From positions 80,352,001 through 80,416,000 of the forward strand of contig OZ024741.1 in the NCBI GenBank assembly GCA_964016885.1: a stretch of 64,000 bases of DNA. The letters run 5' to 3'. The notes below the pieces were generated by a model. It saw nothing but the letters and a program-made list of their open reading frames with translations, made no database searches and had not been told where the DNA came from. Below are positions 9,322-10,351 of this stretch, in pieces. The position numbers were made by a program, and so were the translations under genes. This DNA is from Eledone cirrhosa. Lineage: Eukaryota. Each line of letters opens with the position of its first letter. The stretch's first letter is position 1.

Positions 9322-10351
9322 GTCCAAAGACGATTGCCGGAAGTTAAAAAAATACAGTGAGGATATACCTTCATGGTTGTCGACAGATTTCAAGAGTAAC
9401 TTTCGGATGTCGTCTGTGACGTTTTGGAAAGTGTTCAGCTACCTGCGTACGTGTCCTGAAGCAATTGAGATGGCACGAGGGAGCCAACCAGAGACCTTGG
9501 AAAAAAGTTTGTTATGTGTTCTATGGTATATGGGTTCCCAAGATTCCTTGTCAGAAATCTGTCAACGTTTTTCAATAACAGAAGGGTCTTTCCTTAACCG
9601 CCGAAACAAAATAACGAAAGCACTTCTTTCAAAGTCAAAAGAGAATCTCATTCGATGGCCTGAGAAAGACTCTGATAAGCAAATGATAGCTCAAGAATTT
9701 GAAACTCTGAGTAATTTAAAGAATGTTATTGGTGTCTTGGACACTACACACATTCAGGTGAAAGCTCTAGACAACGATAGGGAGAAATTTTACAATAAAA
9801 ATGGATACTATTCAGTGAAGTTAATTGCTGCCTGTCAGCGGGATATGAGGTTTACATTCTGTTCAACCGGACATGCTGGTCGTCTCCACGATTTTCAGAC
9901 TCTTGTTGACAGTCACCTTCTGGAGCAGGGCTCATATTTGTGCAACTCGCACCATTTGGTTGGTGATGCTGCCTTCCCCCTGTTCGATTGGTTGATCACC
10001 CCTTACACTTGTGAGTCAAAAACAGAAGCCCAACAGTACTACAACACTTGCTTGAATACTGTCCTAAAAGTCATAACACGTGCCTTTGGTCTACTACATG
10101 GACGGTTCCGGAGACTAAAGGTCATTGAGTCTACGAATCTCAAAACCATCGTGGATATAATTCACTTAGCATGTGTCCTACATAACTTCTGTATTGGCTG
10201 TGATGATACAGGTGAAGAGTATATGGTATATGAAGTGGAAGATGAAGGGGATGATGCCCTACCGGTGACCAATTTACCCCCACTCCCTGACAGTGTCAAA
10301 ATTAAGAGAGACATTATTTGCCGGAACCTTTCAATAGGGAGACAGCGCTAG
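9322..10351 (+). CDS. Harbinger/PIF transposase-derived (HARBI1/ALP1-like, DDE_Tnp_4) coding exon; probable spliced terminal exon
   Basis: Uninterrupted frame to TAG at 10349-10351. Harbinger motifs in order: DFKSNFRMS, NVIGVLDTTHI (GAIDGTHI), FYNKNGYYS, GRLHD, LVGDAAFPLFDWLITPY, RAFGLLHGRFRRL, ACVLHNFC. Preceded by the acceptor tttttttcttctcaatatcag (AG at 9320-9321, phase 2). First in-frame ATG (9407) is inside the conserved N-terminal motif. Confidence 0.9.

Follow-up and report, generated by a model that had tools for sequence, protein, structure and literature searches.

A coding exon derived from a Harbinger transposase lies on the sense strand within the TRIM33/TIF1 gene of the cephalopod Eledone cirrhosa and forms an alternative 3' exon of it, placed between the RING-B-box-coiled-coil (RBCC) exons and the PHD-bromodomain exons at 9322..10351 (+) of the window, by which we mean the whole analysed stretch of 64,000 nucleotides (contig OZ024741.1, positions 80,352,001 to 80,416,000). 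Two in-frame routes leave exon 4 (E4) of this gene, one into the canonical next exon (E5b) and the other into the Harbinger exon, and the transcript taking the latter route very probably carries the whole RBCC (RING, B-boxes and coiled coil) and drops the PHD finger and the bromodomain. TIF1 proteins are central chromatin cofactors, and KAP1 is the transposon-silencing hub of vertebrates. The conserved TRIM33-Harbinger terminal exon is, in our view, more notable than the catalytic loss within the captured domain itself.

The Harbinger exon comprises 343 codons including the split codon, is entered through a phase-2 acceptor and closes with the stop TAG. Its stop-free frame extends from 9263 to 10351, but the true coding exon begins at the splice acceptor at 9322, behind an intron end with a polypyrimidine tract and AG acceptor (9229..9321, +). 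Downstream of the stop follows a likely 3' untranslated region (10352..10686, +), which the spliced contig covers to about 10595, with a TG/TA repeat at the end, and which contains AATAAA at 10647 and 10681. The first-pass annotation of this DNA had described a Harbinger domain retaining two catalytic Asp and bearing Thr in place of the catalytic Glu, and every codon was found where it had been placed: D140 (GAC, 9740..9742, +, in GVLDTTH) and D215 (GAT, 9965..9967, +, in LVGDAAF) are kept, and position 252 is Thr (ACA, 10076..10078, +, in KVITRAFG). In a 20-row alignment (A1), whose orthologue rows are the window and all 10 members of the two closest clusters, the third catalytic column is ungapped and holds Thr in 11/11 orthologue rows versus Glu in 7/7 non-cephalopod outgroup rows, so that all 10 cephalopod relatives fetched share the exchange. 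A degenerate protein with Glu at the third site by eye (P0007) was excluded from A1 and included in the tree. The acids closest to T252 are E235 and E269, each 17 positions off, and hence no shifted acid can replace the lost Glu. Furthermore, the DGxH motif reads DTTH, as had been noted (Gly is present in 6/7 outgroup rows), and the residues K160N, Q168I, R248L/Q and K259H, invariant in the outgroup, are altered as well; of the 51 positions that at least six outgroup rows have in common, 15 differ in the orthologues and 36 do not. The additional change of VCD to ACQ is present, but it makes weak evidence because that Asp is variable among the outgroup rows.

Despite these exchanges, the fold is predicted to be kept. 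The domain matches the whole Pfam DDE_Tnp_4 profile (PF13359, 1-158/158; E 2.9e-26; 92 bits vs a cut-off of 24.8), as the annotation had anticipated, and 11/11 orthologue rows retain D140 and D215 along with the HD motif and the fold. AlphaFold2 predicted a complete two-part fold (mean pLDDT 84.2, pTM 0.85), in which a helical, helix-turn-helix-like N-terminal region precedes an RNase H-like core. The top structural matches of this predicted structure were the piggyBac transposase (Z 10.2, rmsd 5.3, 231 aligned) and the Tn5 transposase (Z 9.3), and residues 30-108 resemble helix-turn-helix folds with middling Z of 5-6. A Foldseek search with the Harbinger domain ranked transposases highest, but none of its matches reached E 0.001, a PDB sequence search gave a single match (E 0.087) taken as chance, and ESM Atlas gave generic DDE_Tnp_4/HARBI1 clusters only. 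From the residues altered, it is highly likely that the Harbinger domain does not cut DNA.

The two closest clusters include Octopus bimaculoides XP_014777370.1 (P0011) and Sepia (Acanthosepion) pharaonis CAE1312692.1. Over its 342 residues the exon is 93.0% identical to P0011 and 76.6% to P0018 of the cuttlefish cluster, the latter value being about equal to that of the neighbouring host exon (78.8%), and no disruption of the frame was found, as it is open and free of indels over 342 aa relative to the cuttlefish-cluster protein. In a tree of 16 rows, which was built without vertebrate HARBI1 and in which the nearest rows are intact-DDE proteins of 30-37% identity, the six cephalopod rows form one clade (support 100/100) with a long stem (1.11) and short tips, fitting rapid change at capture and constraint afterwards. 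Octopus and cuttlefish lineages split roughly 270 million years ago. At the DNA level the exon matches the genome once, and the remaining protein matches are 33-37% identical (counts are lower bounds); of 141 inverted-repeat pairs in 6500-14000, the 25 longest included no convincing element ends, all being AT-rich or simple. Domestication is thus supported by the single copy, the lack of element-like inverted repeats among those shown, and an open frame with an E-to-T exchange shared by octopus and cuttlefish relatives. The exon is not an autonomous PIF/Harbinger element, since its triad is broken, no second ORF with a Myb/SANT domain was found beside it among the candidates scored, and it is not multicopy. 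The earlier proposal of a domesticated non-catalytic scaffold therefore stands in its first part, given the single copy and the conserved open frame, but the exon is not a stand-alone gene, being instead an alternative 3' exon of TRIM33. Two observations concern its surroundings. The translation of 9229-9306, out of frame here, is identical at 26/26 residues in the relative P0001, although identity across the coding exon of P0001 is only 93%; the segment probably serves splicing and is conserved for that. Some 2 kb past the exon, a cluster of AT-rich inverted repeats of 45-66 nt (12193-12665) may represent a small foldback element.

The host gene was recognized through the N-terminal piece of P0011 and P0018, which lies outside the window and maps to a single site 20 kb upstream on the same strand. 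This site, E4 (G000:C2 80340916-80341135), is flanked by an acceptor and a phase-2 donor and is thus an internal exon, and two B-boxes are found 14 kb further upstream. Mollusc TRIM33 proteins map collinearly from the RING, 51 kb upstream of the window, through the bromodomain, giving a one-strand order of RING, B-box/coiled coil, Harbinger exon, PHD and bromodomain (the RING was placed by tblastn with mollusc TRIM33 and the coiled coil by similarity). Upstream of the window thus lie E1 (RING; ends at G000:C2 80301120), E2 (80326530-80327949), E3 (80339683-80339981, 299 nt) and E4. Within it, E5b (31646..31724, +; phase 2 in, phase 0 out, with the mollusc linker motif [VF]KxE...C) is followed by an exon in which a polyQ linker leads into the PHD finger (41016..41500, +) and by exons for the end of the PHD and the bromodomain, placed approximately by tblastn (42350-42487, 44489-44578, 47456-47611 and 49309-49467, +); the PHD and bromodomain exons are absent from the Harbinger isoform. 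The frame between E4 and the PHD exon requires a phase-2-in/phase-0-out exon: a splice-site scan between the two gave six candidates, five of which overlap inside a repeat, the sixth being 31646-31724, and its linker motif occurs in 9/10 TRIM33 proteins examined. With RING, two B-boxes, coiled coil, PHD and bromodomain, the predicted product has the layout of the TIF1 family (TRIM24/28/33/66, Bonus; PMC10672805; here and below, statements from cited papers hold for the parts of the text that were available). The genome has no close paralogue of the B-box exon (next best 36% over part). Between E4 (L004:1478-1697) and its counterparts in two related species, synonymous codon changes far outnumber the others (13 to 1 and 11 to 1), which indicates that the E4 linker is itself constrained.

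The two routes were read directly from assembled sequencing runs, of which 4 out of 24 listed (X24, X10, X2 and X3) were examined at E4; X24 is 99+% identical to the Eledone genome, and X10, at about 91%, is from another species. Contigs of all four runs cover E4 without intron flank, their loose 5' end is the end of E3, and the E3-E4 junction occurs in 4/4 runs with no other 5' neighbour of E4 seen. The E4-Harbinger junction was present in 2/4 runs (X24, X10) and the E4-E5b junction in 3/4 (X24, X2, X3), both thus occurring in X24, where three contigs meet: one stops at the E4 donor, one enters the Harbinger exon and one enters 31646. Both branches are in frame, and their contig depths in X24 are 21 and 23, values which are not a measure of expression. 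The upstream X24 contig has 508 letters before E4, corresponding to E3 (299) plus 209 that, under the exon model, reach back as far as the polyQ tract within the B-box exon; under the same model all three contigs terminate in simple repeats, the two downstream ones at 10595 and 41300. Exon phases run 1, 2, 1, 2 to the Harbinger stop, giving 990 codons from E2 onward and a predicted fusion of at least ~1,025 residues from a Met just ahead of the RING. XP_014777370.1 and P0018 likewise both join E4 to the Harbinger exon. The junctions are unlikely to stem from a processed copy, given that a single genomic site matches E4 and a single one the Harbinger exon.

TRIM proteins pair via their coiled coil. 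On this ground, and by analogy with known domesticated Harbinger nucleases, we propose that the E4 donor, by splicing either to E5b or to the captured exon lacking the catalytic Glu, would yield in the second case a RING-B-box-coiled-coil-linker-Harbinger protein in which the predicted non-cutting transposase replaces the histone reader and acts as a targeting adaptor. The Harbinger part would tether TRIM33 to DNA through Myb/SANT partners, so that the TIF1 repressor/E3 module might be brought to DNA sequences picked by these proteins rather than by histone marks. For this adaptor model as a whole we see the chances as evenly balanced, and we judge in the same way, as a coin toss, its central part, namely that the N-terminal Harbinger region would bind Myb/SANT (trihelix) proteins and the coiled coil would pair the fusion with full-length TRIM33. 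A single triad change drastically cuts transposition by Ping, and ALP1, whose triad reads DGA, serves PRC2 as an accessory protein (PMC4671723). A Myb-like protein binds the N-terminal end of the Harbinger nuclease and brings it to the nucleus and DNA, and domesticated pairs retain this contact, as in HARBI1-NAIF1, ALP1-ALP2 and HDP1-HDP2 (PMC9392472, PMC9710019); this Myb-contact region is kept in the exon. In Drosophila, Bonus tethered to a reporter causes ~22-fold repression via Mi-2 and SetDB1 and requires an N-terminal SUMO site (PMC10672805), and retargeting the N-terminal half of a TIF1 protein could matter for this reason. As to partners, the genome gave 24 matches to PF13837 and 6 to PF13873, and three of these genes (L029, L030, L033) end in a charged helix. 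When the Harbinger domain was modelled together with the C-terminal helix from L029, one of these three similar candidates, folded without alignments, the prediction was uninformative (score 0.01). Several such Myb/SANT genes (PF13837, PF13873) have long open frames (L029, L030, L033 and L039-L044) and are candidate partners of domesticated nucleases in general.

A number of points weigh against the fusion or against its proposed role. The runs carry no record of being RNA (20/24 were guessed to be RNA and 4 are of unknown kind) and were read without a DNA-run control. No single contig spans E3-E4-Harbinger, because the contigs break at the fork; the E2-E3 junction was deduced from length, with only 30 loose letters shown, and the E1-E2 junction was not seen in contigs of the four runs. 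A weak search among 1784 candidates found no fused protein of 600-2000 aa, and XP_014777370.1 (386 aa), the sole gene model with a name, has its first Met within E4 and therefore no RBCC. Relatedly, a search with the B-box exon gave 805 matches, of which the best 120 were TRIM33/TIF1-like, none from a named cephalopod and 0/120 matching the Harbinger exon, and the E4 peptide, compared with 1.84 billion representatives, gave two matches, one being a fragment of 67 aa that contains E4 alone and the other a repeat protein that is unrelated; hence no cephalopod full-length TRIM33 was recovered. Conservation of the Harbinger exon was judged from protein identity and not from dN/dS. No linked Myb/SANT ORF was found, as 0/24 PF13837 and 0/6 PF13873 matches (E 0.01 or better) lie near C2:80.36 Mb in a search that scored 150/350 PF13837 candidates and left MADF outside. 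Finally, both Asp are invariant in 11/11 rows, although a pure scaffold does not need them.

The last of these points would be accommodated if the two Asp still bound metal and lent the TRIM33 fusion a nuclease or nucleic-acid-processing activity, and the retained HD motif and fold agree with such residual chemistry. However, it appears very improbable, as no other acid within 17 residues stands in for the lost Glu, three positions that do not vary in 7/7 outgroup rows (K160, R248 and K259) have changed too, and one triad change suffices to cripple Ping (PMC4671723). Even less credible, to the point of being hardly tenable, is the reading that the exon belongs to a Harbinger insertion, either in decay or still able to move, by which part of the TRIM33 transcripts are trapped to no functional end. 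Transposons do often have an acceptor just upstream of their ORF (bioRxiv 10.1101/2020.05.07.082677), which makes passive trapping possible, but the exon is present in one genomic copy, its frame is open and free of indels at 77% identity to the cuttlefish-cluster protein, and the cephalopod clade has short branches after its long stem.

Two further alternatives differ from the adaptor model in what is made from E4 and what it does. Transcription could start from an internal promoter in or just before E4, giving a short stand-alone Harbinger protein of about 390-410 aa that serves as a HARBI1/ALP1-like scaffold, its nesting in TRIM33 being incidental. P0011 (RefSeq, 386 aa) and P0018 (409 aa) indeed start at a Met in E4, which has four in-frame Met codons, the missing long fused protein would be explained, and a cryptic promoter has a precedent in PGBD3 (PMC2268245), which also counts against our reading. 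We nevertheless consider this unlikely: E3 is the only 5' neighbour of E4 in 4/4 runs, the X24 contig continues unbroken past E3, the frame is open across all upstream exons, and P0011 and P0018 begin at different Met codons, as truncated models do. Somewhat less doubtful, though still rather unlikely, is that the fusion is made and modulates or decoys TRIM33, either since coiled-coil pairing removes one histone reader or since its own helix-turn-helix binds DNA or protein, with no Myb/SANT partner. The same E4 splicing evidence applies here, the predicted structure of residues 30-108 points to a helix-turn-helix, no linked Myb-like gene was found near the exon, and CSB-PGBD3 reaches chromatin partly via tethering to other factors (PMC3459987). 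On the other hand, a pure decoy has no need for 342 residues conserved at 77% between octopus and cuttlefish, and of the proteins of zebrafish Harbinger3_DR only the Myb-like one was shown to bind DNA (PMC9710019).

Compared with known systems, the closest counterpart of TRIM33-Harbinger is the primate CSB-PGBD3 fusion, in which a piggyBac element in intron 5 of ERCC6 likewise provides an in-frame alternative 3' transposase exon to a host chromatin gene, host and fusion transcripts are both made, the triad has lost one of its acids (D352N in PGBD3, E252T in Eledone), and a short form from within the upstream exon is possible (PMC2268245). The two differ in family and host, piggyBac having joined a SWI/SNF ATPase and PIF/Harbinger a TIF1 cofactor, and in age, as CSB-PGBD3 is about 43 million years old whereas TRIM33-Harbinger is common to the octopus and cuttlefish lineages; moreover, no surviving element ends were seen here among the 25 longest inverted repeats, and the fusion is known from sequence only. 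The anatomy of the fusion is already known from CSB-PGBD3. Tetrapod host-transposase fusions such as KRABINER and SETMAR share the mode of birth, with an acceptor just ahead of the transposase ORF, and the joining of a chromatin-effector module to a transposase (bioRxiv 10.1101/2020.05.07.082677). These fusions mostly capture DNA-binding domains and often recruit the TIF1 protein KAP1 via KRAB, whereas here a TIF1 protein itself is the host half, and old ones usually lose the parental transcript, whereas TRIM33-Harbinger keeps both. That survey covers 106 fusions in tetrapods only, and its table may include TRIM or Harbinger cases.

Single-copy fixation of DDE_Tnp_4 genes, as found here, is also known from ALP1 and HDP1 in plants, HARBI1 in vertebrates and DPLG/APLG in insects, and the triad of ALP1, which joins a Myb-like protein in a chromatin complex, is broken (DGA), as is that of TRIM33-Harbinger. 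All of these are described as separate proteins that join complexes, in contrast to the Harbinger domain of Eledone, which would be fused covalently to a chromatin regulator by splicing. The database label "putative nuclease HARBI1" of its relatives is a name given by similarity, not a statement of orthology. The swap of a C-terminal specificity domain behind a retained RBCC is familiar from TRIMCyp and from oncogenic TRIM24/TRIM33-kinase fusions, which involve another TRIM host or arise somatically, and in which the swapped-in part is not a transposase. A literature search over titles and the beginnings of abstracts, with subscription journals largely outside it, found no report of a TRIM33-Harbinger fusion, and the available text of PMC10027918 contains neither "HARBI1" nor "fusion".

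A transposon enzyme has been built into a TIF1 gene and has lasted in both octopus and cuttlefish lineages. The parental isoform has survived beside it, which is uncommon for old fusions according to the available part of the tetrapod survey. In current protein sets the fusion is invisible, because the exon is labelled only as "putative nuclease HARBI1" in a separate 386-aa gene. TRIM33-Harbinger is a testable candidate for a cephalopod-specific gene-regulatory innovation and offers a natural test of what a catalytically dead Harbinger nuclease does in animals, a question open even for HARBI1 (PMC9710019). More speculatively, and as a tentative possibility only, coleoids may have wired a TIF1 corepressor to a transposon-derived Myb/SANT DNA-binding family through a dead Harbinger domain in a switchable last exon, splicing toggling TRIM33 between guidance by histone marks and by DNA sequence, as an independently evolved parallel, made of transposon parts, to KRAB-KAP1 in vertebrates. 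Such a network could also take in several Myb/SANT genes of this genome and three or more further DDE_Tnp_4 exons whose triads are broken.

In the genome as a whole, 0/4 DDE_Tnp_4 matches found, the Harbinger exon of TRIM33 included, had an apparently full triad (counts again being lower bounds). Two further open-frame Harbinger-type nuclease exons with an acceptor-like AG at their 5' side lie at G000:C6:26421274-26421783 (+; L002/L005; triad A-A-Q) and G000:C22:30029336-30029893 (-; L003/L006; triad N-D-E), and are likely separate domestications because they are placed in other parts of the tree. A further DDE_Tnp_4 exon, of THAP + HTH_Tnp_4 type, is open over 423 codons and has degenerate-looking catalytic motifs (L008, G000:C6:20466642-20467085, +). 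Within the TRIM33 gene, two other candidates for a missing exon, the string WPDMA at 46984 and an ORF at 29667-29987, were dropped as chance. Its introns contain broken LINE reverse-transcriptase fragments on the minus strand, recognized by motif (4753-6108, 26425-27069, 34385-35173 and 36109-36570), and a TA/TG-type simple repeat of ~1 kb (27450-28530), which produces spurious long ORFs.
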